From a virus, in the IMG/VR virus record IMGVR_UViG_3300044971_004534: a DNA stretch of 64,000 bases; one strand, written 5' to 3'. Positions 3,205 to 50,177 of the stretch are shown piece after piece. A program made the translations under genes and the position numbers. Under the pieces are notes generated by a model, which saw only the letters and a list, made by a program, of their open reading frames with translations, was not told the DNA's origin and made no database searches. Position 1 is the stretch's first letter, and every line of letters starts with the position of its first letter.

Positions 3205-5904
3205 ATGTATTTAAAGTATTTTATGAATATAGAAAAAACTGCACAACTTAATTGGTTTCGAGGAATAAGGGATCGCATTCGTGGCAACAAGCCAGATGAA
3301 AGCGGTCAAGAATTGTCATTTAATGAACAAGAACTGCGTGGGCTTGAAGAAATAGAAAGAAGAAAGACTGAAGAAGAAAGAAAAAGAGTTGATAAGCTGG
3401 TCCAAGAATCAAAAGAAAGAGCTGAAAGCTTTGGTAGACCTGACAATATTCCCGGAAAATTTGAATTAAGTAGATCTAGTATTCAAAATATATTGTCTAT
3501 GGACAGAGATACTTTATGGCATAAGCTTTGTGCATCTTTTGAGAATTGTTCTCCTTATGTTTCTGAAACTACGGCACAAAGGGGAAGAATAATAAGATAT
3601 CTTGTAGACACTAGGCAAGGCGATTATCGAGGTGGCTGGGGAAGTGTGCTTAGGAGCATAGATTTTCTACTGCAAGGATTAGAATTAGATATACGTAATG
3701 CAGGCAATAATAGTAAAGCGGCAATATCTCATAATAATATGCAAGAAATTTTTACCAATAGAGATTGGCTCATGGCAAATAAAGATGGAATTCAACGAGC
3801 CTATGCACAAGCATCTCCAGACTCTATTAATAAAGAAGTTTTAAATAAATTTTTAACAAATAAACAATCGTATTATGCTCGACGTGATGCAGCTATAGAA
3901 GTATGGGCATCATTTTTAAAAAATAAATATCAATATTACTATGGAAATACATTAAGTGATCAGTATTTTTATAATATTCATCTGTATGCGGATAGGTTAT
4001 GGGAAGATTTTAAATTATATTTTCGATTGATGTCAGGTAATCTATTCCACAACATAGGCATTCAATTAGGTAAAAAATACTTACCAGAAGATATGCAATC
4101 AATTTCTGATGGTGTTCATGCAATAGATGTAAGTATGTTCGACATAGCAAAGCCAGCTAATTTAATGCAATCACGCAGTAATGCAAGGGGTGAAAATGAT
4201 ATCTTTTATAATTGGACCGTGAATAAATGGAAAGAATTTGTAGAAGATACACATTTAATGCTAAGCGTCTTTGGATTTAATTTAAAAGGTGTGTCAAATA
4301 TTAATAATATAAATGGAGAAAATTTATATTACAATATGATGCAAAAAATAATTATGATAGAAAATATTGTTAATAGAGATCCTTTTATAAGTCATATTTT
4401 TAATAACAGTAGATTAGATTTAGGAGATAGCTATTATATATATGCACAAATTAAAGACAAAATGAGTGCTGATCATAATCCAAATAGAGAAGAATATTTA
4501 GTTTCTATATTAAATCAAATTTATGTTAATCAGCATGGAGGGTACTCAAGAGCAATATCTGAAGCTTCAGATGAAAGTTTGAGATCGGCGGCAGATAGGG
4601 TGCCATTTGCAGTAGAACATATTTTATTGCATTTAGAATTTGGTGAAAATATGTATAATGTTATTAATAATTTTGACCAATATCAATCTGCTCTAAATTC
4701 ATACAGAGAAAAACAGCATTCAGCATTAAAAAAAGTAAGAAACGTTCTAGCCAATCCTGATTTAACACAGATGTCTCCCGAAGAGGCAAGACAGTATTTT
4801 GTAGAAAAACTTAATAGACTAGCGAATAGGGAGTTTGAAGGTAGCAATATCGAAAAGGCAAAGCAAGAGCAAATTCTTGATTCTCCATTTGAGCACACAT
4901 CAGTGATAAGACCGTCTACCTTTCCTGGTCAAGCAGCATTTAATAGCAACTCCTTGCCTGAATTGCAAGGAACTCCAATTTCTTTTAATATAGCAATTTA
5001 TCCAAAAAAGAAAGAAAATGACCCGGAAAACTTTGCACAAGTTCTTGCTCCAGGTGGGCACGCACAAGATGGACTAAACTTTCATCATCAGAATATTCCG
5101 TCATTAGAAAATAAGAAATATTATAGTCATATACTTGGCTGGATAGGTGGATGGGTTGACGTAGTAGGCTCGAACATGTATATAGCAGAAATTCAAAGCG
5201 ACGTTATGCAACATACGTCTTACATGAAAGATCCAGAAAAGTCAAAAACAAAATTGAACGAAGAACTTAAAAAGCAAATGCAAGAATTGCAAAAAGAAAA
5301 AGACAATCTTGCTAAACAATCTACAGAAGGTATAGAAAAATTCTATGATAAAAGAATTGAAGAGTTAGAAAAAAAGAGAGATAGCGCAAATAATGAGGCA
5401 ATGAAGCAGCAAATGGATACTGCAATAAAAAAATTAACAGAACAAAAAAACGCTAAAGAAGATCCGTGGGTTAAACTAAGAAAAAAAATAAAAGACATAG
5501 AAAATGTTATTGTTGAAATTAAAAATCAAATTCAAGAGCTTATTGATTATGAAAGAAACACTAACGATCAATGGAGAAAAAGGCCGCAGTTTGCTGATGT
5601 AAAGTCAAAAATAGAAAATAGATTTTCTGAATATGTCGATGTTTTTTATAATGAAGCAATTTACTATTGTGCTCAACTCAAAATTAAAGGTTTATGGATA
5701 GTGCATTCAGATCTTTTAGCTGCAGTCTGGCGACATTTTGCAACGGCTGATACCGTAGAAATGTATAAGAAAATATACGACAAACGAGCGATGGAGATGG
5801 GAGCAGAAAAGAAGGGCAACTGGTGGCACTTAGATCTTACCAAGAAAATGCCTAAGTATGCAAGCACAAATTGGTATCAAAGGACTAAAAATGGGATGGT
5901 ATAA
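3205..5904 (+). CDS. large protein, paralog 1 of a tandem pair (unknown function)
   Basis: 899-aa ORF; the start may be the ATG at 3223 (MNIEKTAQLNWFRG). The C-terminal ~330 aa align with 5891..8986: FEHTS, FNIAIYPKK, GLNFH, GWIGGWVD, YIAEIQSDVMQ, ENRFSEYVDVFYNE, MYKKIYD, WWHLDL, MPKYAS, NWYQ. Confidence 0.85.
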   Translation: MYLKYFMNIEKTAQLNWFRGIRDRIRGNKPDESGQELSFNEQELRGLEEIERRKTEEERKRVDKLVQESKERAESFGRPDNIPGKFELSRSSIQNILSMDRDTLWHKLCASFENCSPYVSETTAQRGRIIRYLVDTRQGDYRGGWGSVLRSIDFLLQGLELDIRNAGNNSKAAISHNNMQEIFTNRDWLMANKDGIQRAYAQASPDSINKEVLNKFLTNKQSYYARRDAAIEVWASFLKNKYQYYYGNTLSDQYFYNIHLYADRLWEDFKLYFRLMSGNLFHNIGIQLGKKYLPEDMQSISDGVHAIDVSMFDIAKPANLMQSRSNARGENDIFYNWTVNKWKEFVEDTHLMLSVFGFNLKGVSNINNINGENLYYNMMQKIIMIENIVNRDPFISHIFNNSRLDLGDSYYIYAQIKDKMSADHNPNREEYLVSILNQIYVNQHGGYSRAISEASDESLRSAADRVPFAVEHILLHLEFGENMYNVINNFDQYQSALNSYREKQHSALKKVRNVLANPDLTQMSPEEARQYFVEKLNRLANREFEGSNIEKAKQEQILDSPFEHTSVIRPSTFPGQAAFNSNSLPELQGTPISFNIAIYPKKKENDPENFAQVLAPGGHAQDGLNFHHQNIPSLENKKYYSHILGWIGGWVDVVGSNMYIAEIQSDVMQHTSYMKDPEKSKTKLNEELKKQMQELQKEKDNLAKQSTEGIEKFYDKRIEELEKKRDSANNEAMKQQMDTAIKKLTEQKNAKEDPWVKLRKKIKDIENVIVEIKNQIQELIDYERNTNDQWRKRPQFADVKSKIENRFSEYVDVFYNEAIYYCAQLKIKGLWIVHSDLLAAVWRHFATADTVEMYKKIYDKRAMEMGAEKKGNWWHLDLTKKMPKYASTNWYQRTKNGMV

Positions 5905-8900
5905 GTTTGCACAACTTCATGCAATGAAGTGCTCTCCAGTAAACTTGAAAAAGTTACTGCAATTTGCACACACTCCAGGACAGGCTTATTTGTTCGAGAT
6001 GGGCGAAGAACATTCTGCTATGCAAAAACACATAGAAAGACTTGGCGGAAAAAGATATAAAATTCAATTTTTACTCAACACGTTTGATGCAATGCTTACC
6101 GATCTAGATAACACAAAATTAGATTTTGAAGTAGATCAAGATAGGATTGCAAATCGCATAGATTCCGACTATGTAGAAGAATCATATGGTTATATTTTTG
6201 ATGAAGATGACACTAAGTTTTGGGAAAACATAGATGGCATAAATGATCAAGTTTTAGAATTTATTGAAGAATCTTGGGATGTTTCTGAAGATGACTTTGA
6301 GAGTCGCTTATTTCATTATCCAGTAAGTAGTCGTGAACCAAATAATTCAAAAGAACTCGTTAGTCTCAAAGACATTTCAGAAGAACTGTCTAGTTTTGCG
6401 TATTTTGGAGATATGATTTCTTGCATAGGCAATTTGAAACATGATAAATATGTAGCTCGTGATATCATGAGAGAAATAGCGGATATAGATATTGATTTAA
6501 GGTCAATGGGAGAATCAGCAACCGGCATTCATGTTCATACGTGGGCTAAAAATAAAGGCATTGATCTGACGCTTGCTGTGGTTCAAAAAGCAGCAGGTGG
6601 AGAACAAAATGTTGAGATCGCAAAATACGATCCAGATTCAGCAAAACAAATAGCACAAAAAGCTTACTCTAATGTTGCAAATTCTTGGGTTGACAGTATA
6701 GAAAAATTACCACATTCTAAAACAGATTTAGAAGAAGCAATTGAAGAAGCATTCAGAGATCAGGTAAAAGAATCATGGTGGGAGTCTAACAAACAACGCT
6801 TTATGGAAGATGCAGTTGATAATGAAATTGAAAGTACTGCGGATTCATTTAATTATGATGATAGAAGATGGGCTAAAAACACATTGCCCGCAGAATCAGT
6901 AGACCCAAACGTCAGACATCATGTAAGTAAAACTTTTACGGAAGCATTAAAGGAGCACAGCTGGCTAGATAGAGACGAAGATTCTGGTCATGTACAGGTT
7001 GAAGCTAGTAGCTATTTTGCAAACTTAGGAGTTAAAGATTGGAGTAAAATAGCGGATGATATACAGGAAATGGCGGATGACCACGCAATGACTGGTTACG
7101 AAGATTATGTAAAAGAAATAAGATCATATACATCTATGATTAATTGGATTGTAGCAAGTGATCCAGACTTGTCTGCAATCTTTTCTGATGAAGACGCAGA
7201 CCCGACAACACTTACGCAGACTGCTACGGATTTGGGGCAAATAGTTAAAACTTCATATGAGGTTATATCTCTTATGCCTCAGGACGATGCAAGACGCATG
7301 GAGCAAAGCATAACTGCAGAAAATCCAGAGATTGAAGACTGGATTAAAGCCTTAAGAGAAAGAGAAGAAGTAGAAAGACAGGCGAGAGAAACTCAAGCTG
7401 CCATGCTTGCGGAAGAAGAGGCAAGAAAAGCTATACAAAGATCAAATAGAGAAAGAATTGAAAAAGAAGTTTCTGAAGAGTCTAAAAAAATTAATGATCC
7501 AAATATCGGCTCAAGGTCTTTCACAGAAGAGCAAAAGCAGCAGGCAAAAACTCAAAACATTATTGGTAAACCATTTGAGCACATGTCAACATTGCGGGTT
7601 GATCAAAAATACCCTGGAGTGAGCGCCTTTGTGTTAAAGCCAGTACCTATGGAAAGTGAAGTTCCTTATAAGACTTTCCATATTGCTATATATCCAAAAA
7701 AGGAGCAAAGCGATCCGACAAGACTGCATGATGTCTTTGATAGAAGTGCGGGTTTAAATTTTCATGGATTTAGTTTTCCTGAACATGTGAATGAAAATTA
7801 TTACGATCTTATTGGATGGGTTGGCGGCACTATTGACCTTTATAATAAGATAATGTACGTCACAGAAATACAAAGTGATGTAATGCAAAATACCCCTCGC
7901 ATGAAAGATGTTTCCAAGAGCATTGTTGCTTTGAACGAGGGAAAAAATAGCTTATTAGCTGAAGCTGAAAAAATAAAAACATATATTACCACAAATGATA
8001 TCAATGCATATTATGACAAGAGAATACAAGATTTAAAATTAAAAATTCAATCCATGAGTGACAGTCCTGCTGCAATGCAAATGCAGCAAGCTGTTTTAAA
8101 ATTAGAAGAGTTAAAGAATAAGGGTGTAGACCCTTTTGAAAAAGAAAGACAAAAACTACACGATATTGACAATAAACTTAAAGAGATTAATAGGCAAATA
8201 AATGATATAGAAGAATTTGATAAGAAACCTTCTGCCAAACTAAATAAACCTCATCTTTCAGAATTAAGATCTCGAATAGAAAATAGATTTACTGATTGGG
8301 TAGATACCTTCTATAATGAAATATTTATGTATTGTTCTCGCTTAGGAATAAAACATTTATATATAGCAGCTTCTTCTTATTTGTATCTAACATGGAGACA
8401 GTATGCCAAGGCATCTACACTAGAATTGTATAAAAAGATATATGATACAAAGGCTGAGAAGTACGGAATGCGTAAAGTACATTATAAGGGTGTCACGTAT
8501 TGGCATTTAGATCTATCAGAAAACATGCCAAAGTTTGCGAGCAAAGAAAGGTTACAAATGTCTAAAAATAATTGGTATAGGCAAATTAAAACTGCAATGG
8601 ATTTTAGCAGTATTTACATTGATGATATAAAAAGAAAATTTTCTAATGGAGAGATTACGGAAGAGCAAATGCAAGCGCAGATACGTGAAAGATATATGGA
8701 ACACACACAAGATCCAACTACTCGTGACCCAAAACTGTTTATTATAGAAGCAAAAACTTTCTTTGATACGATTAAGCATATTGAAGGCAGAGAAAGGGGT
8801 GGAGAAGATTCTGAGTTTTCAAAAGCTCAATTTATGAGGGAAGCATTGGGTCAGTTTTTAGAATTTAATGGTAAGAAATATACAGACAGAGACGGCAAGC

Positions 8901-8986
8901 TAGAAGAGCCATTTAAATCAATACTTCAAAGATTGCTTATACAGAAATTTAATTACGACATGGATTTAGATGAAATGGTAGAGTGA
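5891..8986 (+). CDS. large protein, paralog 2 of a tandem pair; N-terminal MGWYKFAQ tag
   Basis: Listed ORF 5858..8986. The ATG at 5891 gives MGWYKFAQ and a 14-nt overlap with the upstream stop. It shares FEHMS, FHIAIYPKK, GLNFH, GWVGGTID, YVTEIQSDVMQ, ENRFTDWVDTFYNE, LYKKIYD, YWHLDL, MPKFAS and NNWYRQ with paralog 1. Confidence 0.85.
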   Translation: MGWYKFAQLHAMKCSPVNLKKLLQFAHTPGQAYLFEMGEEHSAMQKHIERLGGKRYKIQFLLNTFDAMLTDLDNTKLDFEVDQDRIANRIDSDYVEESYGYIFDEDDTKFWENIDGINDQVLEFIEESWDVSEDDFESRLFHYPVSSREPNNSKELVSLKDISEELSSFAYFGDMISCIGNLKHDKYVARDIMREIADIDIDLRSMGESATGIHVHTWAKNKGIDLTLAVVQKAAGGEQNVEIAKYDPDSAKQIAQKAYSNVANSWVDSIEKLPHSKTDLEEAIEEAFRDQVKESWWESNKQRFMEDAVDNEIESTADSFNYDDRRWAKNTLPAESVDPNVRHHVSKTFTEALKEHSWLDRDEDSGHVQVEASSYFANLGVKDWSKIADDIQEMADDHAMTGYEDYVKEIRSYTSMINWIVASDPDLSAIFSDEDADPTTLTQTATDLGQIVKTSYEVISLMPQDDARRMEQSITAENPEIEDWIKALREREEVERQARETQAAMLAEEEARKAIQRSNRERIEKEVSEESKKINDPNIGSRSFTEEQKQQAKTQNIIGKPFEHMSTLRVDQKYPGVSAFVLKPVPMESEVPYKTFHIAIYPKKEQSDPTRLHDVFDRSAGLNFHGFSFPEHVNENYYDLIGWVGGTIDLYNKIMYVTEIQSDVMQNTPRMKDVSKSIVALNEGKNSLLAEAEKIKTYITTNDINAYYDKRIQDLKLKIQSMSDSPAAMQMQQAVLKLEELKNKGVDPFEKERQKLHDIDNKLKEINRQINDIEEFDKKPSAKLNKPHLSELRSRIENRFTDWVDTFYNEIFMYCSRLGIKHLYIAASSYLYLTWRQYAKASTLELYKKIYDTKAEKYGMRKVHYKGVTYWHLDLSENMPKFASKERLQMSKNNWYRQIKTAMDFSSIYIDDIKRKFSNGEITEEQMQAQIRERYMEHTQDPTTRDPKLFIIEAKTFFDTIKHIEGRERGGEDSEFSKAQFMREALGQFLEFNGKKYTDRDGKLEEPFKSILQRLLIQKFNYDMDLDEMVE

Positions 8987-9174: not shown

Positions 9175-9186
9175 TGAGGGTTTTTT
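9161..9186 (+). terminator. rho-independent terminator
   Basis: aaaaccctca gtaa tgagggtttt forms a 10-bp stem followed by a T run. Confidence 0.75.
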
Positions 9187-9209
9187 AATTAAAGCTTGTA
9201 ATATATTAC

Positions 9210-9662
9210 ATGTTTAAAGTAAATGATATTAAAATATCAAAATATGACTGGATCAATATCGGCATACATGCTGGTTGGATCAAGACATCTCATATGGGGC
9301 ACGCTCCAAATGTCTACGATATGACTGCGCATATGTTGCATTACAGAAGCTTGTACGAAGAACACATCAGTCCTGTTATAAAAAAATTGGCAGTTCATTT
9401 GCAAAAAGGTCTTTTTAATAAAGAAATGGCTTTGGCTTCTTTTGAAAGAATTGCTCATAAAGGAATAGAAATGTATATTAAGGAGCATGGTGAAATAGAC
9501 GTGACTCCAATGATTGTAAGATCTATAGCTGAAAACTTATTAGACAACTACATGGAAGAGATAACAGATGAGCTTTTGACTATAAGTGACGAAAATATTG
9601 TGTCGAAAAATAAGGATGAGAAGAAAAAAGCTCCCAATAAACGCAGAGACCGTAATCCATAG
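9210..9662 (+). CDS. hypothetical protein with N-terminal W-x3-G-x3-GW tag
   Basis: N-terminus MFKVNDIKISKYDWINIGIHAGWIKTSHMG matches the K[ILM]S..[DE]W...G...GW motif shared with 20639, 21839, 28060, 47729, 48968 and 49758. Confidence 0.7.
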   Translation: MFKVNDIKISKYDWINIGIHAGWIKTSHMGHAPNVYDMTAHMLHYRSLYEEHISPVIKKLAVHLQKGLFNKEMALASFERIAHKGIEMYIKEHGEIDVTPMIVRSIAENLLDNYMEEITDELLTISDENIVSKNKDEKKKAPNKRRDRNP

Positions 9663-20569: not shown

Positions 20570-20587
20570 AGGGATCTCCTTGCTAGC

Positions 20588-20597
20588 ATAGTATAAA
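20588..20597 (+). promoter_or_regulatory. candidate -10-like promoter element ataGTATAAA
   Basis: gctagcatagtataaattactac lies 42 nt upstream of the ATG at 20639. It shares GTATAAA..TACTAC with the 23547 copy and TAGCAT..AGTATAAA with the 10663 copy. Confidence 0.3.
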
Positions 20598-20638
20598 TTA
20601 CTACTTATTTTTTTTGTTTCTACCTTGGAGTCTTACTC

Positions 20639-21820
20639 ATGGCAATTATAAAAACAAGTTCTACAACTGGTAAAAAAACCGTCATACTAAACGACCAAGA
20701 ATGGGTCGCTCAAGGGATTATTAACGGATGGTTCACTAATGATGAATTAAAAGAAATCACATCATTTGCATCCTCATTAGCAACTGATGCAAGAATCAAA
20801 GATCAACTATTGACAAAAATAGCATATATAGATGACTACACTCAGGCAGAACAAATGCGTAGATCAGAAGCTGCTCGCAAAGGAGCAGAAACAAGGCGCA
20901 GGAATAGAGCTGCCCAGCAAGCTCCAGCAGCAGCTCCAGCAGTAGCTCCAGTAGCAGCTCCAGTAGTAGCCCCAGCGGTAGCAGCGCAAATAAGAGATCC
21001 ACGCACTGGAATGATAGTGAGACAGACTCCAGAACAGATGATTGGAAGTATGCAAAGAAACAGGTTTGGAGATGCTGCCAGAGCAAACTATCAAAGATTG
21101 CAAAGCATGCCACCAGCTCAAAGAGAAGCTTTTATGAGTCAATTGCAGCAAACTCCACAAGGTAGACAGGCATTGACTCAAATAGCTCAATTTGAAAAAA
21201 ATGTTGCACCAGGAATGTCTGGATTTGTTCAGAGAATTGACCCAAAAACAGGAAAACCTATATCTCAATTAGCAGGCTTAGGACAGGATGTAGCTGCAAA
21301 AACAAGAGCTATTGGACAAGCAGTAAAGGGTACGCCGGGGCAAATTGCCAGAGTTGCTCCTCAGACGGCGCAAAACCTGAGCACGTTGGGAAGAGGGGTA
21401 CAGACTGTTGGTTCAGGAGCTGCAAATGTTGGAAGAATGGGGCTTCAGGGACTTGGGGCTGGTCCTCAAATAATGGGGGGTGTTGGCATTGGTGGTTTGC
21501 TAATGGGTGCGGGCGGCGCATATTTAGGAGCAAAAGGATACCAATATCTAAGAGACAGATCTATAAATAATCAAGTTATTAATAAGGAATTTTTAACTAA
21601 CCCACAAAAAGTTAATTCAGCTCTTGTAGCTAGCTCTCAGCTTAAATCTTTACAGGGAGCGAAGGGTGCTACAAATGCTATAGATGACGCCATTGAAAGA
21701 TTAAATGCAACAGTACTTGCAGCAATCAATAAAATGAATGAGCAGTCACCGCTTGCTCAACAAGTGGTTCAACAAACGCTGCAAGGCATGCAGCAACAAA
21801 GACCTCAACAACAGGCTTAA
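20639..21820 (+). CDS. tag / glycine-zipper / helix family protein (member A), AP- and Q-rich
   Basis: VILNDQEWVAQGIINGWF tag; APAAAPAVAPVAAPVVAPAVAA linker; glycine zipper IMGGVGIGGLLMGAGGAYLGAKGYQYLRD; Q-rich C-terminus. Confidence 0.8.
   Translation: MAIIKTSSTTGKKTVILNDQEWVAQGIINGWFTNDELKEITSFASSLATDARIKDQLLTKIAYIDDYTQAEQMRRSEAARKGAETRRRNRAAQQAPAAAPAVAPVAAPVVAPAVAAQIRDPRTGMIVRQTPEQMIGSMQRNRFGDAARANYQRLQSMPPAQREAFMSQLQQTPQGRQALTQIAQFEKNVAPGMSGFVQRIDPKTGKPISQLAGLGQDVAAKTRAIGQAVKGTPGQIARVAPQTAQNLSTLGRGVQTVGSGAANVGRMGLQGLGAGPQIMGGVGIGGLLMGAGGAYLGAKGYQYLRDRSINNQVINKEFLTNPQKVNSALVASSQLKSLQGAKGATNAIDDAIERLNATVLAAINKMNEQSPLAQQVVQQTLQGMQQQRPQQQA
20921..20986 (+). repeat. imperfect 12-nt tandem repeat (gctccagyagya) encoding an Ala-Pro-Val linker
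   Basis: gctccagcagca gctccagcagta gctccagtagca gctccagtagta gccccagcggta, read directly from the sequence. Confidence 0.8.
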
Positions 21821-21838
21821 TATTTTACAGGCATAAAT

Positions 21839-22402
21839 ATGGAAAACAAAAAATTTAAACTTACAAAAGAAGCTTGGCAAAATGCCGGTGTTAAAAAGGG
21901 CTATTTTAAAAGTGCAGAAGAAAAAGATAGACTGCAAAAAGAAGCATTTGCTCCGTTAGTGACAGGGCTACTGGGGGGAGTTGCTGGTATGGCTGGCAAT
22001 TATCTTTATGATAAATATAAGTCTGGAGACTGGAAAGAAAGACTTTTTGGCTACGGAATACCTCAAGAAAAGATTAATCAAATAAAGCAAGTTTTACAGC
22101 AGTCTGAGGCTACGTTTGCAAATATAGCTGGAATGTCTCCACAGGTTGATGAGGCAATCAAGAATTTTAAAGAGCAGACCCAAGCTTCTTTGCAAAGAGC
22201 AGAAGCTGAAAATGCAGCTGCAGGAAAGGGCAATGCTCAATTGGCCGCAGATCAACTCGCCAAGCAGCAACAGCAAGGCCAAGCTCAGTCAGGACAAACT
22301 CCACAGCAGGGAGCACAGCCTGGTCAAGCTCAGCAGGGGGCTCAATCTGAGCAGGGGCAGCAGACAGGAAAGCCGCCTGAACTATTGGAAAAACCAGAAT
22401 AA
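21839..22402 (+). CDS. tag / glycine-zipper / helix family protein (member B), Q-rich tail
   Basis: KFKLTKEAWQNAGVKKGYF tag; LLGGVAGMAGNYLYDKYK zipper; ANIAGMSPQVDEAIKNF helix; C-terminal QQQGQAQSGQTPQQGAQPGQAQQGAQSEQGQQ. Confidence 0.8.
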   Translation: MENKKFKLTKEAWQNAGVKKGYFKSAEEKDRLQKEAFAPLVTGLLGGVAGMAGNYLYDKYKSGDWKERLFGYGIPQEKINQIKQVLQQSEATFANIAGMSPQVDEAIKNFKEQTQASLQRAEAENAAAGKGNAQLAADQLAKQQQQGQAQSGQTPQQGAQPGQAQQGAQSEQGQQTGKPPELLEKPE

Positions 22403-22423: not shown

Positions 22424-22460
22424 AAAGACTACTTCCATCCAGTGGAGTAGTCTTTTTCTT
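22424..22460 (+). terminator. rho-independent terminator for 21839..22402, embedded in the 3' end of the convergent gene
   Basis: aaagactact / agtagtcttt forms a 10-bp stem with a 12-nt loop, followed by ttttctt. Confidence 0.5.
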
Positions 22461-22809
22461 CTACAATCAAACTGCCTAGTTCTTTGTTTATGAGTTTCTT
22501 TTTTTCAGATCTTTCAGCGTTGTAAAAATACACATTTCTTGCAAGAGAAATAAACTCTTCATCAAACTGTTTGTTAAATTCTTTTTTCCTAATTGCCTCT
22601 TCTATGTCCCACAATGTTTGATTGACTTCCATCATAGACAGTATGCATTGCTCTATGATTGCTTGATCAAATCTAGTAGAAGCCACAGACATTAATTTTT
22701 CAAACTCTTTGTTTACATTTAATAGCTTAACTGGATCTGAGAATTTAATAGACTTAATTTTTAATATTGATATTTTATCAAAAAGTTCACCGAATGAAAC
22801 TGGTATCAT
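22429..22809 (-). CDS. conserved small protein often found next to glycosyltransferases (DUF6165-like, from memory)
   Basis: A start at MIPVSFGELFDKISILKIK (22809) gives a TAATG overlap with the upstream stop. I recall the pattern IGEL.DKI.IL.IK...LW.IE..IR from this family. Confidence 0.55.
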   Translation of the reverse strand: MIPVSFGELFDKISILKIKSIKFSDPVKLLNVNKEFEKLMSVASTRFDQAIIEQCILSMMEVNQTLWDIEEAIRKKEFNKQFDEEFISLARNVYFYNAERSEKKKLINKELGSLIVEEKDYSTGWK

Positions 22810-23589: not shown

Positions 23590-24354
23590 ATGACCTGGTA
23601 TAAATTATCACAGCAATTCTCTGGCAGTACGTATACGGTTGTAGAAGGGGATAGTCTATCTGGCATAGCAAAAAAAATGCTGCATGATATTAATCGATGG
23701 CCAGAAATACAAAAACTTAATAATATTGATGACCCAAATAAGATACAGCCTGGTCAAGTTATAAAATTACCAGAAAAAAAAATACAGACAGATCAAGATA
23801 ATAAAAAAACAAAAATTCAGAATACAGCAAATAATGTTGACGTTTTTGAAGAGCTAAAAAAAGAAATCTCAAGTGGAGAGGGCAACTACTACTCATACAA
23901 TAGGGGGGTAGCTGGCGATACTCCAAAACCAAAAATAGATATTACCAAATTAACAGTGGGACAGATTATTAAAATGCAAAATACTAGTGGTTCAGACAAA
24001 AAAAAGCTTCTTTTTGCTGTTGGAAAATATCAAATGACACCAGCTACACTTGCAGAATCAATAAGGCATCCTAAAGTTGGAGTAAGCTTAAATGATTTAT
24101 TTACTCCAGATGTACAAGAAAAACTATTTATGTATTTACTATATAAAAGAGCCAACTTAATGGCCTATATAGAAGGTAGAAGTGACAACATAGATGCTGC
24201 CGTCAATGACTTGGCCGCTGAATTTGCGTCTTTACCAACAACTTCCGGCAAAGGCAGATACGATAAAGACAAGGCAGGAAATATGGCAAGTGGTGGACTT
24301 GCTAGAGTAGAAAGAATAAAGTCAATACTTTTAAATATAAAAAATAATCGTTAA
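23590..24354 (+). CDS. LysM-domain peptidoglycan hydrolase (lysozyme/transglycosylase-like) with N-terminal MTWYKLSQ tag
   Basis: LysM: YTVVEGDSLSGIAKKML...INRWPEIQKLNNIDDPNKIQPGQVIKLP. The C-terminal EISSGEGNYYSYN...AVGKYQMTPATL resembles the E-S-x-G ... G-x-YQ motif of lysozyme-like transglycosylases. Confidence 0.7.
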   Translation: MTWYKLSQQFSGSTYTVVEGDSLSGIAKKMLHDINRWPEIQKLNNIDDPNKIQPGQVIKLPEKKIQTDQDNKKTKIQNTANNVDVFEELKKEISSGEGNYYSYNRGVAGDTPKPKIDITKLTVGQIIKMQNTSGSDKKKLLFAVGKYQMTPATLAESIRHPKVGVSLNDLFTPDVQEKLFMYLLYKRANLMAYIEGRSDNIDAAVNDLAAEFASLPTTSGKGRYDKDKAGNMASGGLARVERIKSILLNIKNNR

Positions 24355-27401: not shown

Positions 27402-27692
27402 ATGATAAAAATAGAGTCTAATTATTTCAAAAAACAAGCAAATGTCCAGATGTCTATTGTTCACTTTGAGCAAGATGCAGACGGGTGGCACTATGTTGAT
27501 GAGTCTTATGTTGATCCAAGTAGAAATGAAGAGGATCAGATAAATTCTTTTATAGAAAATAGTATTAGCAAAAGCATGAACCTTAAAGAAGCTGGACAAA
27601 ATATTTTTGTTTCAGATCAAGATATGTTCAAATTAAAAAATAGTAATAAAAAATTCACAATTAAAAATGGAAAGGTAACCGTACATGTCTAG
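27402..27692 (+). CDS. hypothetical protein
   Basis: Internal ATG (MIKIESNYFKKQ) of listed ORF 27258..27692. The upstream part overlaps the previous gene. Confidence 0.5.
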   Translation: MIKIESNYFKKQANVQMSIVHFEQDADGWHYVDESYVDPSRNEEDQINSFIENSISKSMNLKEAGQNIFVSDQDMFKLKNSNKKFTIKNGKVTVHV

Positions 27693-28620
27693 CTCAAATA
27701 TTCCAGTTGAAGTGATTGAAGATGCAAGATCGTTGGCAGAACGCAACGGCACGACTATTGGTATTTGGGAAGCACAGCCAAATAAGGGAAACAGAGGCTT
27801 TGTTGTGATGCCTACAGAAAACATGCATAAGTTTACTGAAAGAATAGAGATAAAAGGTTTTACTACAAATCCCACCGGTGAAGAGATTATTCCTAATCCT
27901 ATAACAACTATTGATCCACCCGTCAAATACAGAAGAGGTACTGATCTTTATAGAAGGCAAAGATCTGGGTGGAGAAAGCAACCAAAAACTGAACAAGAAA
28001 TTGGAGTAAGAAATATTGAATTAACAGCTCCAGATTTGAGGCTTGTGGCTAAAGTAAAAATGAATAAAAACGAGTGGGTTAAAATTGGAGAGTCTCAAGG
28101 TTGGATTAAGTCTAAAGATGATCCGGCAAATATGAAAGTGGCTCTCCCTGTTCTTCCCTTGCTAGGAGTTGCTGCTAATTTAGCTTCTCCTTTTATTATA
28201 AATTGGATGATGAGCTCTGGAGAGCAACCATCGCAAGATCCACAGCAGTTTCAGGGACAGATGCAACAAATGAGTCAAGAAGTGAAACAGCAAGCAGATC
28301 AAGTGTTAAAGCCGACGATACAGGCGATACAGCAGCAGGCTGCTAGATTAAATGCATACTGTGCTAATGATACTCAGTCTCCACCATGCCCACCAGATGG
28401 AGAAGTAAAAGATATAAATAAATTCAAACAAAAATTAACTCAAATACAGCAAAAAATGAAAAGCACACAATTTAGCAACGATCCAATGTATGTGTGTCAG
28501 CTATATAGAGAAGCACTTGAATTAAATTCTTGTGCTGCATCTGTTATTGGCATGATTAATGAAGTTAAAAATAATATGCAGAATATGGAATTTAATCCTG
28601 CAGCGAATTTAAGACTGTGA
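27685..28620 (+). CDS. tag / hydrophobic-segment / Q-rich family protein (member C) with an extra N-terminal domain
   Basis: The tag KMNKNEWVKIGESQGWIKSKDD is internal (about residue 126). It is followed by ALPVLPLLGVAANLASPFIINWMM and the Q-rich QDPQQFQGQMQQMSQEVKQQADQ. Confidence 0.7.
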   Translation: MSSSNIPVEVIEDARSLAERNGTTIGIWEAQPNKGNRGFVVMPTENMHKFTERIEIKGFTTNPTGEEIIPNPITTIDPPVKYRRGTDLYRRQRSGWRKQPKTEQEIGVRNIELTAPDLRLVAKVKMNKNEWVKIGESQGWIKSKDDPANMKVALPVLPLLGVAANLASPFIINWMMSSGEQPSQDPQQFQGQMQQMSQEVKQQADQVLKPTIQAIQQQAARLNAYCANDTQSPPCPPDGEVKDINKFKQKLTQIQQKMKSTQFSNDPMYVCQLYREALELNSCAASVIGMINEVKNNMQNMEFNPAANLRL

Positions 28621-28629
28621 AATTATCTC

Positions 28630-30114
28630 ATGATTAAGAAGAGCATATCTGAAGAATTTTTGAGAAGCCAAGATCCAAGGCTACTTTCTCCTCTTATGTC
28701 TGGAGACAGCAAGTCTTATGCTACTGTAATGATGTATAAATCTTTAGATCAAATGGACGCAAGCGCAGAGATGAAACAAGCTTTAAGTAAGATTGTAGAA
28801 GATGCAAAAGTTAAATTTCCTGATTTTTCCTTTAATCAAGTCCCTTATTATTGGCTCATCAAAGCTTCTAAAGCAAAATATGCTGCTATTAATATACGCA
28901 GCTTTGATGGTAAAACAATTCCAATATTAATAATTCGCCAACATAAAGATAAGGGAGTTGTAATTGGTTATGATTATGTCAACTTAAATAGTGGTCAATT
29001 AGTGTATGCAAGATCTGCTGAATTAATCCAGCCAGTTACCGAAGCATTGCATGGCATGAAGTCGGAAAGTTTAAGTACACTAATTAAGCTCAATAGGGCT
29101 ACTCAGTTTCTTATTAGAGACAAAGAGTCTTGGGCTAGGAATGAAAGGCTTGCTGCTTATGAAAGGGGAGATGTTTCCAATCTTATCCCAGCCATATCTA
29201 TGTTGCAAAAGTGTGAAGAGATATTGACACTACGCATAGAGAGATTGAAAAACATAGTCATTTATTATCAAAATCAAAGTAACACAATTACCTCAGAAGG
29301 ACCACCATCTGTTTTTGAAGATGTGGCTAAGCTTATTGATGAAGAAATTCAGACAAAAGGCTCAAAGTTTATTAAAACAGAACAAGACGCAATACATGCA
29401 TTAGTCATGAGATACTTAGGTAAGTCTGGTGAATTTGAACAAAAAATAAAGTCTGGATCACTTTCAAATATCTTGCCAGATCCATCTGGAAAGCAAAGAC
29501 ACAATGTTAAAGATATACTAGAAGTTGCTTTTAAAATTGTTAAAGAAATTGATGCAGAGGCTGCAAGAAAAAGAGAATCTAGAAAAACATACACTAAAGA
29601 AAGAACTGAAGCTATAGAAAAACCTCAAGAGTTACCAGATACAGAATCTCACCCAATTTTTAAACAGATTACTGCTCCAATAACTGAGGAAAGTTTTAAA
29701 GATATTCTACCTGGAAACATCAAAGGATTTCAACATGCAGGCATGTGGATAGGTGAAAAATATGCAGTAGAGATTAATGAAACAAACTTAAAATTAAATG
29801 CCATGAATAAGATGCTATCAGCTGTTCAGTCAATAATAAAAGTTTTACAGTTAAAGAGAGATACGAAAAAACTTTCAGTAAGTAATTTTAGCAAACAAGA
29901 TCTTAGTGAACTAAGAGACGCTCTCGCTGCATGCATGACTCTTGTAAATTCTTATAAGCAAAGTGTGGTAACAAAAGAAAACAAACTTAATAAGAATATA
30001 GTTCATTCCATATTTGGAGATGCTGCAATGGACTTTTTTGTAGCAAGGTATATTGCAGTAATGATCAAATATATAGAGATGGTGTTCGTTAAATCATATA
30101 AAGAGGCAACATGA
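28630..30114 (+). CDS. hypothetical protein
   Basis: 494-aa ORF with no recognisable motif. ATGA-coupled to the next gene. Confidence 0.7.
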   Translation: MIKKSISEEFLRSQDPRLLSPLMSGDSKSYATVMMYKSLDQMDASAEMKQALSKIVEDAKVKFPDFSFNQVPYYWLIKASKAKYAAINIRSFDGKTIPILIIRQHKDKGVVIGYDYVNLNSGQLVYARSAELIQPVTEALHGMKSESLSTLIKLNRATQFLIRDKESWARNERLAAYERGDVSNLIPAISMLQKCEEILTLRIERLKNIVIYYQNQSNTITSEGPPSVFEDVAKLIDEEIQTKGSKFIKTEQDAIHALVMRYLGKSGEFEQKIKSGSLSNILPDPSGKQRHNVKDILEVAFKIVKEIDAEAARKRESRKTYTKERTEAIEKPQELPDTESHPIFKQITAPITEESFKDILPGNIKGFQHAGMWIGEKYAVEINETNLKLNAMNKMLSAVQSIIKVLQLKRDTKKLSVSNFSKQDLSELRDALAACMTLVNSYKQSVVTKENKLNKNIVHSIFGDAAMDFFVARYIAVMIKYIEMVFVKSYKEAT

Positions 30115-30575
30115 ATAATTGGTATAAAATTTCGCAAGCAAAAGGAGCTCCTCCCCCGCCGCCACCACCCCCGCCACCGCCGCCCGGAGTACCTCCGCCA
30201 CCTCCTGGAGGTGCTGCTCCTGCCGGTCCTTCTGAGCAGCGCGTAGGAACAGTTTCAGGAGTAGACGCAGAAGAAGTTAATGAGATTAAAAAAGATGATA
30301 AAAAATTGCTTAAAAAATTAAATAAGCATTTTAAAAACGCTATCGATTCTGGTCACGATATTGAATTGTCTGCAATTATGGCAATTATGGCAAATGGATC
30401 TACGTTAAGTCCTGGGCAGCTAGATATAGCAGAAACATTTGACCCTGATTTCCCCGAACAAGATCCTCCCTTCATAAGGTCAATCATAGGAATTCATTTG
30501 GGGACTAAGGCGCCAGGTCAGGCTACTCCTGATGGAGCCACAGGAGCTCCACCACCGCCTCCTCCAGGTCTATAA
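30111..30575 (+). CDS. polyproline protein with N-terminal MNNWYKISQ tag
   Basis: MNNWYKISQAKGA-P12-GVPPPPPGG ... GAPPPPPPGL. Proline tracts lie at both ends of a ~100-aa helical core. Confidence 0.75.
   Translation: MNNWYKISQAKGAPPPPPPPPPPPPGVPPPPPGGAAPAGPSEQRVGTVSGVDAEEVNEIKKDDKKLLKKLNKHFKNAIDSGHDIELSAIMAIMANGSTLSPGQLDIAETFDPDFPEQDPPFIRSIIGIHLGTKAPGQATPDGATGAPPPPPPGL
30150..30206 (+). repeat. GC-rich CCN run encoding P12-GV-P5
   Basis: cct ccc ccg ccg cca cca ccc ccg cca ccg ccg ccc gga gta cct ccg cca cct cct. This is a local GC island in an AT-rich genome. Confidence 0.9.
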
Positions 30576-46991: not shown

Positions 46992-47729
46992 TCAAATTTC
47001 GAATCTTTGCTTTAAAGCATCTGCTGTTCCTGTACCAGATGGCTTAGCTGCTGCTGCTGCTGCTGCTGGCGCTGACTGCTGTGGAGGAGCAGATGGGGTT
47101 GGTGCAGGAGGAGGTTGTGTGGAAGTTGGAGCTTGAGGAAGTTGCTGAGTATTTGTTTTACCAGTGAGTGCCTCATAATTAATAGGTTCCTTTCCTGTTG
47201 CAATCAGCATATCATTCATAAGTTCATCTTCTTCTAAAAGCTTCTTGCCAGCTTCAAAAGCAGGACCAATTCCTCTTTCAGTAAGTCTTTGAGATATTGT
47301 TGCAATTCTTTCACTTAATTTAGCATCAATATTTTTAAGATCATTATCTAGACGATCAGATATGCCGCCAAGTCTTGATTTCACTTCTTGTTGGAATCTT
47401 GCTTGTGCATCTTGAAGAGCTTTTAGCATTTCTGGAGTTTCTGAACCACCAGACCACCAGTCTTGAGCAGACTGTAGCAAGTTTGATTTACTGAATATAG
47501 ATGCTAAAGCTCCAACTGCACCGCCAGTTAATCCAGCTCTCAGAGCAGATCCGAATAGAGCGCTACCTGCTCTTCCAAGTGCTGGACCAACAGCCCTTCC
47601 AAGATTATAGGCTAACTGAGCTTCTTTATTGAGTGTGAATGTTCCATCAGCTTCAGCAGTAACGTATCCTTTTCTGATGCCTGAAGCAAGCCACTGTGTT
47701 TGAGATATTTTTATCATTTCTTTTTTCAT
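46992..47729 (-). CDS. tag / glycine-zipper / helix family protein (member D)
   Basis: MKKEMIKISQTQWLASGIRKGYV tag; GRAVGPALGRAGSALFGSALRAGLTGGAVGALASIF zipper; LGGISDRLD helix; C-terminal PPPAPTPSAPPQQSAPAAAAAAAKP. Confidence 0.8.
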   Translation of the reverse strand: MKKEMIKISQTQWLASGIRKGYVTAEADGTFTLNKEAQLAYNLGRAVGPALGRAGSALFGSALRAGLTGGAVGALASIFSKSNLLQSAQDWWSGGSETPEMLKALQDAQARFQQEVKSRLGGISDRLDNDLKNIDAKLSERIATISQRLTERGIGPAFEAGKKLLEEDELMNDMLIATGKEPINYEALTGKTNTQQLPQAPTSTQPPPAPTPSAPPQQSAPAAAAAAAKPSGTGTADALKQRFEI

Positions 47730-47738
47730 GTTAACCTC

Positions 47739-48968
47739 TTATTTTGGTAAATAATCTGGAGACTGTGGAGCAGAGGCTCCTGGTGCATATCTATTTCTTA
47801 AAGCTTCAGCTATCTGATCTTGCTTTTTCATAGCTGGACCACGTGAAGTTGGTTGAGTTTGCTGTATTTGTCTTTGTAAATCAGCAATTGTAGCCATTGT
47901 ATTTCTCATTTCCTTATCAAGCACTTTACTAATGCCTGCAATGGGCTGGAATACCATTTGTAGTGAAGCAATGCCTCGCTGGAAATCTTGAGGTCTGTAA
48001 TCTTTCATTTGATTATTACCTCTTGCTGCATCAAAAAGAGCATCAGCGCCATAATATCCGGCTAATCCACCACCAAGTGCTGCAGCACCACGGCCAAGCA
48101 TTTGTCTACCAGTTAATGCTGGAGTTGGATTTGGAGTTGGATTTGGAGTTGGATTTGGAGTTGGATTTGGAGTTGGATTTGGAGTTGGATTTGGAGTTGG
48201 ATTTGGAGTTGGATTTGGAGTTGGAGTTGGAGTTGGATTTGGAGTTGGATTTGGAGTTGGATTTGGAGTTGGATTTGGAGTTGGAGTTGGAGTTGGATTT
48301 GGAGTTGGATTTGTTCCACCGCCACCGCCAGAAGTGCCACCACCAACTAAGCCAACAGCAGCTCCTCCTTTGTATGGAACAGCGCTCTTAAATGCAGCTA
48401 CAAATTGTGCATTATCCATACCAGCACCCGCTGGATCAGTAACTCTTAAGTTACCCTTTCCTACCATTCTTTCAAGAAGATTTTTGTCTTGATTATATAA
48501 CTGAATCATTTGAGAATTTCCAGCAGGGTCTGTTACTTTTAATAAAGATCTTTCCAAACCTCCAGCACGTGATGCAATAACGTCAAACTTGAAATTTTGT
48601 CTTTGATCTGCAGGAATAGCCTGTATCGCAGAAATAGCACTGTCTCCTTGGAATCTTAAGGCTCCAAGTTGAGACATTCTACCTTCTCTAAATCTATTCC
48701 ATCGCTCTCTTAATTTTAATGCAGCTTCTGGATCTTGTGGATCTATTTTTGCTTGAGCGCGGCTACCAGAGTCACTTTGCAACCAATCTTCAAAAGACGG
48801 AAGTTGAGCAGCAATAGAAGGGTCATACAAAGATCCCTGCGCTACCTTCACTACGCCATCACCTTCTGTGTAAAATAAGCCTTTATCTAGGCCAACCTGA
48901 AGCCACTCACGGGAGCTCATTTTAATCATGGGTTTAGACGAATTTGCTGTTTTAATAAAACGTGCCAT
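47739..48968 (-). CDS. tag / PT-repeat / glycine-zipper / helix family protein (member E)
   Basis: [27 protein letters not shown] tag; [10 protein letters not shown] then about 66 aa of (N)PTP repeats; [15 protein letters not shown] zipper; [13 protein letters not shown] helix. Confidence 0.85.
48121..48312 (-). repeat. 12-nt tandem repeat (ggagttggattt; ~16 units with 6-nt variants) encoding NPTP repeats
   Basis: Read directly from the sequence. The coding-strand unit is AAT CCA ACT CCA. Occasional ggagttggagtt units give PTPTP. Confidence 0.95.
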
Positions 48969-49029
48969 TATGTAATTTCCTCCAAATGCTATATGTTATT
49001 CAAAATAATATAAATGTTTTCCTCTTCAT

Positions 49030-49758
49030 TTACTTATTTTTTGCTGCGTCTAACTGTCTAATTAAGTCTAAAACGGTTGCGACGCCTTCTGCCATACTCT
49101 TGTCAAGACTTTTAGATATTCCAGCTATATCTTTAGCAATCATAGTTAATTTAAGTGCGGCTCCTTTAAATTTAGGGATACTGCCTGCTTTTTGTTCTAT
49201 TACTGATGGAGATGCAACATTAAATCCTTTTCTTTGGTCTATAGTTGCATCAGCTATCCAGTCAGCAAGAAGGTATCCTCCAACCCCACCGGCACCAGCA
49301 GCAAGACCTCGACCAGCAACTGTTCTTGCCTTACTTGGACCCAGAATAGAACGGATTCTACTGGGTCTTGTTGTTGACTGAAGGGCTGCCACCTGTTCTG
49401 GAGATATAACTCCACTAGATCTTAAATATTCTCGCAATCTTGCTGGATCTGCAGCAATTGCGTTTATAACTGCAGGATCAACATTTTGCTGCCTACTTTG
49501 CATAATGCGTGAAACAAGCATTTGTGCACCAATGCTGCCAGCAACAACACCAAAAACAGAATTACCGTCTGATTGCTCCGATTCTCTTGAACGTTCTGGA
49601 GACTCATTACGTCTTGACGCTTCACCTGGATTTATAATGCCTCCAGAAGCAGAAGGAAATGGCATATTTGTAACATCAAAAGCAACTTTGCTTCGTGTTG
49701 AAACCCAGTTGTTTTCTATGCCTATTTTTAACCAATCTGCTGAAGACAGCTTAATCAT
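49030..49758 (-). CDS. tag / glycine-zipper / helix family protein (member F)
   Basis: A start at MIKLSSADWLKIGIENNWV (49758) gives an ATGA overlap with the upstream stop; the listed start is 49797. AGGVGGYLLADWIAD zipper and DIAGISKSLDKSM helix are close to member E. Confidence 0.8.
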   Translation of the reverse strand: MIKLSSADWLKIGIENNWVSTRSKVAFDVTNMPFPSASGGIINPGEASRRNESPERSRESEQSDGNSVFGVVAGSIGAQMLVSRIMQSRQQNVDPAVINAIAADPARLREYLRSSGVISPEQVAALQSTTRPSRIRSILGPSKARTVAGRGLAAGAGGVGGYLLADWIADATIDQRKGFNVASPSVIEQKAGSIPKFKGAALKLTMIAKDIAGISKSLDKSMAEGVATVLDLIRQLDAAKNK

Positions 49759-50090
49759 GGAAGCTTGGTATTCTTTCTCCAAGCTTTGCAACTCCAATAT
49801 CTGGCACTTGTTCTGTCTTTAGCCTGATCGCACTTATGTCTAGCTAAAAAGCTCTTCTGTCTACTTGGCTTATTTCTCTTAATTGACAGTGTTTTTTCAC
49901 CTTTTGCCTTGGCGCTTGAGCCACCATGACCAAAGTTAACCTTCTTTACATTTCCACTCTTTGGATCTTTGACATATACCTTAAATTTCTTTACATCGCC
50001 CTTCATGATCTTGCCTAGTGGAACATCTTTACCGCCATGCTTTGCGGCTTCTTTACGCATTTCGTAGTTATTTGAATTGAATTCGAGCAT
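49755..50090 (-). CDS. small basic conserved phage/virus protein
   Basis: KVNFGHGGSSAKAKGEKTLSIKRNKPSRQKSFLARHKCDQAKDRTSARYWSCKAW. I recall this pattern (F.ARH.C....D..SA.YWSC) from phage and giant-virus small proteins. Confidence 0.65.
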   Translation of the reverse strand: MLEFNSNNYEMRKEAAKHGGKDVPLGKIMKGDVKKFKVYVKDPKSGNVKKVNFGHGGSSAKAKGEKTLSIKRNKPSRQKSFLARHKCDQAKDRTSARYWSCKAWRKNTKLP

Positions 50091-50101
50091 AGAATTCTCC
50101 T

Positions 50102-50138: not shown

Positions 50139-50177
50139 CATACCCCTTTTTATTAAAATATAAATATATGTATGAAA

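Follow-up and report, generated by a model that had tools for sequence, protein, structure and literature searches.

A putative portable tag and a family of glycine-zipper proteins in an uncultured marine tailed phage

Two Adjacent Genes in a Fragment of a Marine Phage

The 64,000-nucleotide stretch analysed in this study (IMG/VR record IMGVR_UViG_3300044971_004534; hereafter, the window) is a fragment of a tailed phage genome encoding the large subunit of ribonucleotide reductase, a dUTPase, an SNF2-type helicase, and tail-fibre-like proteins, and its source is an uncultured marine tailed phage. The subject here is a pair of open reading frames (ORFs) on the plus strand, g20639 (20639..21820; 393 amino acids, ATG start) and g21839 (21839..22402; 187 amino acids, ATG start), together with the short N-terminal tag and the glycine-rich segment that both products carry. 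Both ORFs lie where the preliminary description of the window placed them, and all the peptides quoted there are present. Orthologs of these genes and of their paralogs were gathered from metagenomes and IMG/VR. It was found that g20639 has 29 metagenomic homologs of 43-96% identity, none of which is named, and that g21839 has eight homologs of 56-98% identity. With conserved blocks, freely varying linkers, and maintained synteny, the two are real, conserved protein-coding genes. Among deposited phages (50,697 records, searched with DNA and by tblastn), no relatives were found for the locus, for g20639, or for two large neighbouring proteins, while one virion protein of the window has relatives in cyanomyoviruses and HMO-2011.

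The product of g20639 is the long form. Its first 33 residues (20639..20737, MAIIKTSSTTGKKTVILNDQEWVAQGIINGWFT) constitute a full-length tag which is almost invariant among the orthologs. An Ala/Pro/Val low-complexity linker, read from the sequence at residues 91-117 (20909..20989), varies freely in length and sequence among the orthologs. Next comes a conserved central module (residues 118-215; 20990..21283) with two DP[RK]TG motifs and many invariant columns in a 13-sequence alignment; this module has no match in Pfam, PHROGs, or the PDB. A glycine-zipper segment follows at residues 278-301 (21470..21541, IMGGVGIGGLLMGAGGAYLGAKGY), in which G281, G283, G286, G290, G292, G293, and G297 are invariant in the orthologs. 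A conserved C-terminal helix (residues 342-369; 21662..21745, KGATNAIDDAIERLNATVLAAINKMNEQ) is followed by a Q-rich tail running to the stop codon. In the AlphaFold2 (AF2) model, the tag is predicted at low confidence to have two strands (residues 3-6 and 13-16) and then a helix (residues 19-28). The mean predicted local distance difference test (pLDDT) score is 37.8, and values of 50-70 are reached only at residues 111-180 (a beta hairpin and four helices); the protein looks mostly disordered in this model.

The product of g21839 is the short form. Its tag occupies residues 4-24 (21848..21910, KKFKLTKEAWQNAGVKKGYFK) and is kept in the orthologs of four related loci (L001, L004, L007, and L008). 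The glycine-rich, weakly hydrophobic segment at residues 37-56 (21947..22006, FAPLVTGLLGGVAGMAGNYL) reads GLLGGVAGMAG in its core and is also kept in the orthologs; the Kyte-Doolittle maximum over 19 residues is 1.26. A conserved helix with the motif IAGMSPQVDEAIKNF (residues 93-124; 22115..22210) precedes a Q/G/A-rich tail (22211-22399). The AF2 model is all-helical with a mean pLDDT of 49.7, and a helical hairpin at residues 76-149 is predicted at a pLDDT of 60-73. PDB sequence searches with both families gave nothing significant.

A Five-Member Glycine-Zipper Family

The preliminary description had assigned g20639 and g21839 to the same family as three genes clustered about 25 kb away on the other strand (46992..49797, minus strand). 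In the order of transcription, these are F (49030-49797), E (47739-48968), and D (46992-47729); E is the long-form counterpart of g20639, and D is the short-form counterpart of g21839. The F-E-D order is kept in L005/L006 and in a distant relative, L016, and a metagenome scan for relatives of F returned one near-identical locus only. Pairwise BLASTP comparisons among the paralogs gave only short marginal segments, so profile methods were used instead. The ortholog profiles were compared by hhalign after masking low complexity, which also removed most of the glycine zipper, and reversed alignments served as controls. Significant similarity remained after masking, and the membership of both genes in the D-F family stands. 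g21839 matched D at 95.1% (E = 3.4e-8; residues 1-130 against 1-154), g20639 matched E at 89.7% (E = 1.9e-6; residues 1-36 of each), and the C-terminal helix of g20639 matched F at 29.5% (E = 5.7e-4). The comparisons within the cluster gave 91% for D-E, 81.5% for D-F, and 92% for E-F. The reversed controls did not exceed 0.7%, with E values of at least 0.086.

The separate parts of the proteins were compared as well. When a tag profile was built from the other five tag-carrying ORFs of the window and searched against 934 six-frame ORFs, g20639 (E = 0.003) and g21839 (E = 0.017) ranked first among the sequences not used for training. A profile of the C-terminal module of D, E, and F detected g21839 (E = 6.8e-4) and did not find g20639, whose C-terminal helix aligns with the IAGISKxLDKxM sequence of E and F. 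In all five full members, the glycine-rich segment and a helix with the motif [IA][AG]G[IMA]S..[LVI]D stand in register at a spacing of about 30-50 residues. Of 114 identical residues, just 46 also agree at the synonymous third position. Thus, the similarity is at the protein level.

In summary, the family is composed of an N-terminal tag of the form [KM]-phi-[ST]-x2-[DE]-W-x3-G-x3-[GN]-[WYL], a variable low-complexity linker, a weakly hydrophobic glycine-zipper segment, and an amphipathic-looking helix with a Q/P/A-rich tail. The glycine segments have 19-residue Kyte-Doolittle maxima of 1.2-1.3, which is too weakly hydrophobic for constitutive transmembrane (TM) helices, and the members contain no cysteine. 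Repeated GxxxG in a weakly hydrophobic stretch with conserved glycines agrees with a glycine-zipper motif, while the glycine-zipper families of Pfam gave no match at E <= 1 for any of the seven tag-carrying proteins of the window, and all matches of these seven proteins in Pfam and PHROGs were insignificant. The five-member family is lineage-restricted: when 1.84 billion cluster representatives were searched exhaustively by HMMER with the module profile of all five members, 15 proteins were returned at E <= 0.001, among them orthologs of g20639 (P0008 and P0049), and every full-length match has the tag at its start. The long-to-short order of g20639 and g21839 mirrors that of E and D, which suggests that the two loci arose by an old duplication of a two-gene cassette.

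The preliminary description counted at least seven paralogs. A six-frame scan for W-x3-G-x3-[GNK]-[WYFL] found exactly the seven named ORFs and one out-of-frame string with stop codons, and the members at 9210, 27685, 46992, 47739, and 49030 are all present in the window. Seven tag carriers therefore exist, but the full layout is found in only five of them (20639, 21839, 46992, 47739, and 49030), and the count of seven paralogs overstates a family of five full members plus two other tag carriers. g9210 (9210..9662, plus strand) has the tag and no glycine zipper; its Kyte-Doolittle maximum of 0.51 indicates no hydrophobic segment. In g27685 (27685..28620, plus strand), the tag is internal (residues ~125-146) and is followed by a TM-like segment (Kyte-Doolittle maximum of 1.85) and a different, Cys-containing C-terminal domain; the orthologs in L001, L004, L007, and L008 also have an internal tag. 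Since the tag heads many unrelated proteins, as described below, sharing it is no proof of whole-protein paralogy.

As a separate observation, E (g47739) has a long (NPTP)n repeat linker at residues ~220-290. Its orthologs have shorter poly-Gly or Pro-rich stretches instead, and about 100 residues of the middle region are absent from them. Thus, the linker is highly plastic.

The Tag as a Putative Portable Viral Module

Is the tag confined to this lineage? A 48-nucleotide degenerate pattern for K-x-[ST]-x2-[DE]-W-x3-G-x3-G-W, validated beforehand on known tags, was searched in IMG/VR and gave 73 matches in 58 stretches. A control pattern of nearly the same composition (47 nucleotides, with the last two codons out of frame) gave nine. 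Tag-class sequences account for 44 of the 73 matches; they come from about 20 unrelated contigs with GC contents of 31-61% and lengths of up to 476 kb, and 35 of the 44 lie directly after a Met residue. Another 20 matches form a second class, with the same core followed by GWCGPPVCYTHDG. The other nine fall under the score or length cut-offs and equal the control count; two of them, L059 and L060, may be real tags.

The full tag is about 35 residues long and reads MK[IL][IV]KTASGK.TIK[IM]SK.EW..IGKKAGW.K.AQ. This form matches the N-termini of g20639 and g47739 end to end, and the tag of g20639 aligns over its full length with MK[IL][IV]KTASGK.TIK[IM]SK.EW..IGKKAGW. With a profile made from the foreign tags alone, the seven ORFs of the window were the top seven matches (E = 2e-7 to 0.15), and the next match had an E value of 3.2. 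The best match of this independent profile was g9210 (E = 2e-7); g20639 was matched over positions 1-32 of the hidden Markov model (E = 0.004), and g21839 was matched at E = 0.008.

The tagged proteins range from 51 to 585 amino acids, and their C-terminal parts are unrelated. Elsewhere, the tagged genes are often arranged in tandem arrays. One contig has five tagged genes, three of them adjacent, whose tags are 92% identical and whose cargoes have no similarity to each other (E >= 0.5). Near-identical tags on unrelated cargoes imply that something recognises the tag specifically. Judging from these sequences, the tag is a portable module that stands on its own, is restricted to viruses, and spans about 20-35 residues. 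Its layout may be a beta hairpin, a helix with [ST]xx[DE]Wxx[IV]G, and a strand starting with G[WY], according to AF2 models of low confidence.

No match over the tag was found in Pfam or PHROGs for any tagged protein scanned. A profile of 26 tag sequences gave nothing significant in the PDB, the best match being Cks1 (E = 1.8). Literature searches found nothing on the tag motif strings or on glycine-zipper phage ejection proteins. The tag, its breadth, its short form WYKx[A/S]Q described in the next section, and the glycine-zipper family are all without a match in Pfam, PHROGs, PDB sequences, and deposited phages. In a collection of bacterial and archaeal genomes, two of 120 pattern matches were genuine tags, both in contigs of metagenome-assembled genomes (MAGs), and the rest were chance matches. 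These two are L105 (a 183-kb contig of a Lentisphaerae MAG) and L142 (a 9.7-kb contig of a Planctomycetaceae MAG). Both may stem from prophages or from viral contigs that ended up in MAG bins, and they give a possible lead to hosts.

The second class consists of viral ORFs of about 100 amino acids on 20 contigs (GC content of ~0.5), in which KMTFDEW.KIG...GW is followed by CGPPVCYTHDGLP.SEEE and an acidic stretch (L026-L028, L039, L040, L042, L046, L048-L050, L052, L055, L058, L065, L066, L073-L077, L079, and L080). One of these ORFs was searched against Pfam and PHROGs and had no match. In some proteins, the tag is followed by the motif CW.GYK..G.K..GK..VPNCVP (L033:~5500-6300 and L034:~7960-8120), which several PHROGs of unknown function match.

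A Short Form of the Tag and Other Tagged Cargoes

The six frames of the window contain three copies of a shorter signature, W[YF]K[ILFTMV][AS]Q; the expectation is 0.01, and 300 shuffles gave no more than one. Each copy lies two to three residues after a plausible start Met, and the signature is similar to the strand that ends the long tag (GW[IM]K.AQ). A looser version of the motif is N-terminal in nine of ten matches against 0.4 expected, a count to which a post hoc pattern and 5′ codon bias may contribute. The three carriers of the strict signature are all on the plus strand. The first is a 1042-amino-acid ORF (5891..8986) starting with MGWYKFAQ (5891-5914). The second is a LysM protein (23590..24354) starting with MTWYKLSQ (23590-23613); it has a LysM match (E = 1e-12) and an endolysin-like C-terminal region, with matches to endolysin PHROGs, and its orthologs start with MTWYKMSQ or MNINWFKLSQ. 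The third is a poly-proline protein (30111..30575) starting with MNNWYKISQ (30111-30137), and its orthologs start with MALWYKIAQ or MIINWYKTAQ. This protein of 154 amino acids has proline runs of 12 and six at its two ends, which is unusual in phage, and its gene is kept in relatives beside the g27685-like gene and a 494-amino-acid gene.

Tag-like strings were also seen at both ends of the SNF2-type helicase (1201 amino acids; 16964-20569, minus strand) and its orthologs in L001, L004, L007, L008, and L010. The N-terminus reads ..F.IIK[LTS][AS]Q, while the C-terminus reads SWYKNA, NWYKYA, or GWYKLAQ in the relatives and RWYNFVKNI in the window. Directly downstream of D, a 310-amino-acid gene (46043-46975, minus strand) encodes a Gly/Ala/Pro-rich protein with (GGGGQA)3 repeats and with a short-tag-like NFKKIAQQ at residues 19-26; in L016, a 319-amino-acid ORF follows D.

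Some relatives encode a DUF3293 or S-adenosylmethionine (SAM)-lyase-like protein (E = 1.5e-6 and 3.3e-4) with a long tag near the C-terminus (L036:~1090-1935, the same gene as L010:2-787, and L004:2-265). The long tag runs into the short signature and then into a strongly acidic tail ending in ...RRRNFQKDHW. This protein, whose gene is absent from the window, may be a tagged anti-restriction enzyme. Another tagged protein has a weak ArdC-N match (E = 0.006).

Gene Neighbourhood and Transcription Signals

The gene order in the relatives is the helicase gene (minus strand), the g20639 ortholog, the g21839 ortholog, the LysM gene, and GLF; farther on come the g27685-like gene, the 494-amino-acid gene, the poly-proline gene, and SOD. 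In the more distant relatives, L001-L004, the LysM gene follows the pair on the same strand. In the window, two inverted genes (22429-23528, minus strand) lie between g21839 and the LysM gene, encoding a DUF6165 protein (132 amino acids, E = 1.7e-9) and a 239-amino-acid ORFan. This looks like a local insertion or inversion.

The pair had been proposed to form an independent transcription unit with its own promoter and terminator. The helicase gene and g20639 are divergent and separated by 69 bp (20570..20638), and the candidate promoter GTATAAATTACTAC lies at 20591-20604 in this spacer. It occurs in one exact copy and is not a recurrent element, with 16 matches against 10 expected at three or fewer mismatches. 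No sigma-70-like site was scored on the plus strand of the spacer. From its position only, a promoter in this divergent spacer is plausible. On the other side, the terminator was confirmed as an intrinsic-terminator-like hairpin with a 12-bp stem and a T run (22424..22455, plus strand), which overlaps the 3′ end of the convergent gene 22429-22827. The hairpin is kept after the g21839 ortholog in the closest relative, L008 (14-bp stem), and is absent in L001. Thus, the terminator supports an independent unit in this phage and its close relative, but not in the distant relatives, where the LysM gene follows without a strong terminator.

Similar hairpins lie upstream of other genes: one directly upstream of g9210 (9150-9210, aaaccctca-gtaa-tgagggtttttt) and one upstream of the gene 49755-50090, which precedes F (50090-50180, acagtacgg...ccgtactgt-tcttttttt). 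These suggest that these tagged-gene units also start just after terminators.

Comparison with Known Systems

T4 and P1 already provide examples of diverse phage proteins that have a terminal address tag in common; for the tag described here, no prior description was found in the literature searches. The T4 capsid-targeting sequence is about 10 amino acids long. The T4 internal proteins are diverse proteins with only the capsid-targeting sequence in common (PMC3012670). In IPI, IPII, IPIII, and Alt, as here, a short N-terminal peptide is attached to unrelated, fast-evolving proteins, some of which are anti-restriction proteins, and the tandem arrays with 92% identical tags and unrelated cargoes resemble the T4 arrangement. 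On the other hand, no sequence homology to the T4 capsid-targeting sequence or to any known internal protein was detected by tblastn, PHROG, or Pfam searches. The tag here is 20-35 residues long, is probably a small folded domain, and can be internal or C-terminal. Moreover, the phages here are not T4-like, and their lineage has no cultured relatives.

The N-terminal 30 residues of the P1 protein DarB (250 kDa) suffice to load a reporter into the capsid, and this signal, which is longer than nine residues, may need tertiary structure; DarB is believed to enter the cell at infection (PMC9024508). The signal is comparable in size to the tag, and DarB is a precedent for a packaged large enzyme, which is relevant to the 1201-amino-acid helicase with tag-like termini. 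Unlike the many proteins with one recurring tag described here, the P1 Dar proteins share no consensus tag (PMC9024508), and homology to them was not detected.

The same modular logic is found in the MuF-domain polymorphic toxins of prophages, whose hypervariable C-terminal effector domains are joined to a conserved N-terminal module for trafficking, but the tag is far smaller than a MuF domain, and toxin domains were not recognised in the cargoes. Glycine-zipper membrane proteins share with this family the GxxxG runs and a weakly hydrophobic segment, with glycines that are invariant among the orthologs here. In contrast to them, this family has a single segment flanked by long disordered regions and a family-specific conserved helix. 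Glycine-zipper toxins are mentioned in a review of the type VIIb secretion system (PMC10765036).

Possible Roles of the Tag and the Glycine-Zipper Proteins

The tag may be a trafficking label, most plausibly for capsid loading, and the glycine-zipper cargoes may be membrane-active ejection proteins. Taken in full, this reading is possible rather than probable, while it is considerably more likely that the tag is a targeting or docking module of some kind. In the capsid-loading reading, the tag would bring different cargoes to one common partner, of which the assembling prohead (the scaffold, the portal, or the inner capsid surface) seems the likeliest, and the tagged proteins would be packaged in the head and delivered with the DNA. 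While in the head, the glycine-zipper proteins would remain soluble or disordered. Once ejected, they would oligomerise via their GxxxG faces and insert into the host envelope, where they may form or support a DNA conduit or depolarise the membrane. Weak hydrophobicity (1.2-1.3) and disorder would suit proteins that stay soluble before insertion. The targets of other tagged cargoes, such as the LysM/endolysin-like protein and the SAM-lyase-like enzyme, would be the wall or the defences of the host. The recognisable cargoes (LysM/endolysin-like, SAM-lyase-like, weakly ArdC-N-like, and glycine-zipper proteins) fit delivery at infection.

A wider proposal is that the tag of about 35 residues, MK-phi-phi-KTASGK-x-T-phi-K-phi-SK-x-EW-x2-IG-x3-GW-x-K-x-AQ, and the short WYKx[A/S]Q are an undescribed, widely shared virion-loading label of uncultured phages, including those on contigs of 296 kb and 476 kb, which marks arrays of hypervariable injected proteins. 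The injected set would then comprise glycine-zipper ejection proteins, wall-binding proteins, anti-restriction enzymes, and perhaps the helicase. I regard this wider proposal as rather doubtful.

Several points weigh against a capsid destination. In the pooled PHROG annotation of 92 neighbouring ORFs of tagged genes, one major head protein and one terminase were found, and no functional module was enriched. The tag is internal in g27685 and C-terminal in the SAM-lyase-like protein, whereas the T4 and P1 signals are strictly N-terminal. A 34-residue tag had no tblastn match among the 50,697 phage records, a collection that has no cultured relative of this lineage. For the helicase with tag-like ends, a function in replication or transcription is just as plausible. 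A conserved protease cleavage site after the tag was not established, both AF2 models are of low confidence and leave the fold of the tag unsupported, and I can only infer the presence of the tagged proteins in the virion.

Alternatively, the tag may be a docking or oligomerisation module that works within the infected cell. Beta-strand addition, for instance, could join its cargoes to a hub, which might be a host protein, a phage chaperone, or an assembly associated with the membrane. The glycine-zipper proteins may then be exchangeable subunits of a membrane complex inside the cell, with a part in host takeover or in superinfection exclusion. An internal or C-terminal tag would be natural for such a module, and elsewhere the tagged genes lie among small unknown genes and genes for tRNA nucleotidyltransferase and ATPase rather than among head genes. 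In addition, the E-type members have three phi-phi-K-phi-[AS]-x strands, which suggest a small folded beta domain, and the short WYKx[AS]Q tag resembles a single strand of that domain. However, the T4 internal-protein genes also lie outside the head gene cluster. Thus, the genomic context does not tell the capsid reading and the hub reading apart. To my knowledge, there is no intracellular hub system with near-identical tags on tandem unrelated cargoes. Near-identical tags with unrelated small cargoes in tandem are the layout of the T4 internal-protein locus (PMC3012670), and docking at an intracellular hub seems unlikely to me, if worth keeping in view.

It was also considered whether g20639 and g21839 belong to a lysis or envelope-disruption cassette, in which g21839 and perhaps g20639 would be holin-, spanin-, or disruptin-like membrane proteins acting with the LysM protein late in infection. 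The orthologs of both genes and the LysM gene, whose product matches endolysin PHROGs, lie on one strand in the relatives. Like Rz-type i-spanins, g21839 has a short N-terminal region, one glycine-rich hydrophobic segment, and two long helices in a hairpin, and it has a weak match to an Rz-like spanin PHROG (phrog_739). However, this match is not significant (E = 0.012), and the hydrophobic segments are under the usual TM threshold (1.26 for g21839). Five paralogs at two loci would be unexpected for a lysis cassette, and the tag is also found on the SAM-lyase-like enzyme and many unrelated proteins. The family has no cysteine, and no lipoprotein partner was noticed, without a systematic search for o-spanins. 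In the window, moreover, the two inverted genes and the terminator part the pair from the LysM gene. A lysis cassette is thus quite improbable.

An even less probable idea is that proteins are tethered to phage DNA by the tag, which would then be a small, basic domain that binds nucleic acids, such as a looped-hinge helix of the AbrB/MazE kind. The widespread full tag is very lysine-rich (MKLIKTASGKQTIKISKKEWTDIGKKAGWMKKAQ), and its strand-helix-Gly-loop-strand spacing resembles SpoVT/AbrB by eye. Nevertheless, the 26-sequence tag profile found no AbrB, MazE, or SpoVT chain in the PDB at E <= 10, and no SpoVT_AbrB match (PF04014) appeared in Pfam searches at E <= 1 for the window proteins or at E <= 0.01 for the IMG/VR set. 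The tags of the window family are also far less basic.

Finally, although repeats of Q, A, P, and G abound in the proteins and AU-rich 5′ codon bias (K, I, S, and N after the start codon) could inflate the post hoc count of the loose short motif, a purely compositional resemblance is refuted by the masked hhalign comparison (E down to 3e-8 against at least 0.086 in the controls), by the external tag profile that selects exactly the seven ORFs, and by the count of the strict WYK motif (3 against 0.01), and it fits neither the W/G/GW core, which is not made of AU-rich codons, nor the internal tag of g27685. Resemblances to double-glycine leader peptides and to ClpX N-terminal degrons were judged by eye and dropped, since internal tags occur and neither a peptidase nor a transporter was seen as a partner.

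Phage proteins that accompany the DNA are the first weapons used at the host, and they are nearly invisible in metagenomes, since they evolve fast and match no family. A common short tag would offer a sequence handle for such proteins across uncultured phages. If the virion-loading proposal is true, the proteins injected by uncultured phages could be recognised straight from their sequences, and foreign proteins could be loaded into capsids with the tag as a natural portable signal, a use to which the signals of T4 and P1 are put already. Even without a capsid destination, a virus-restricted tag that is near-identical in arrays and shared by dozens of unrelated proteins points to specific recognition. 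In the window itself, five ORFan genes are now one family with a defined modular layout and a possible membrane-active role.

Minor Observations in the Window

Two further ORFs of the window were noted. A 329-amino-acid protein (13600-14589) has a near-threshold DUF5872 match at its C-terminus (E = 2e-5). The ORF upstream of F (49755-50090), which encodes 111 amino acids and follows one of the hairpins described above, matches phrog_7595.

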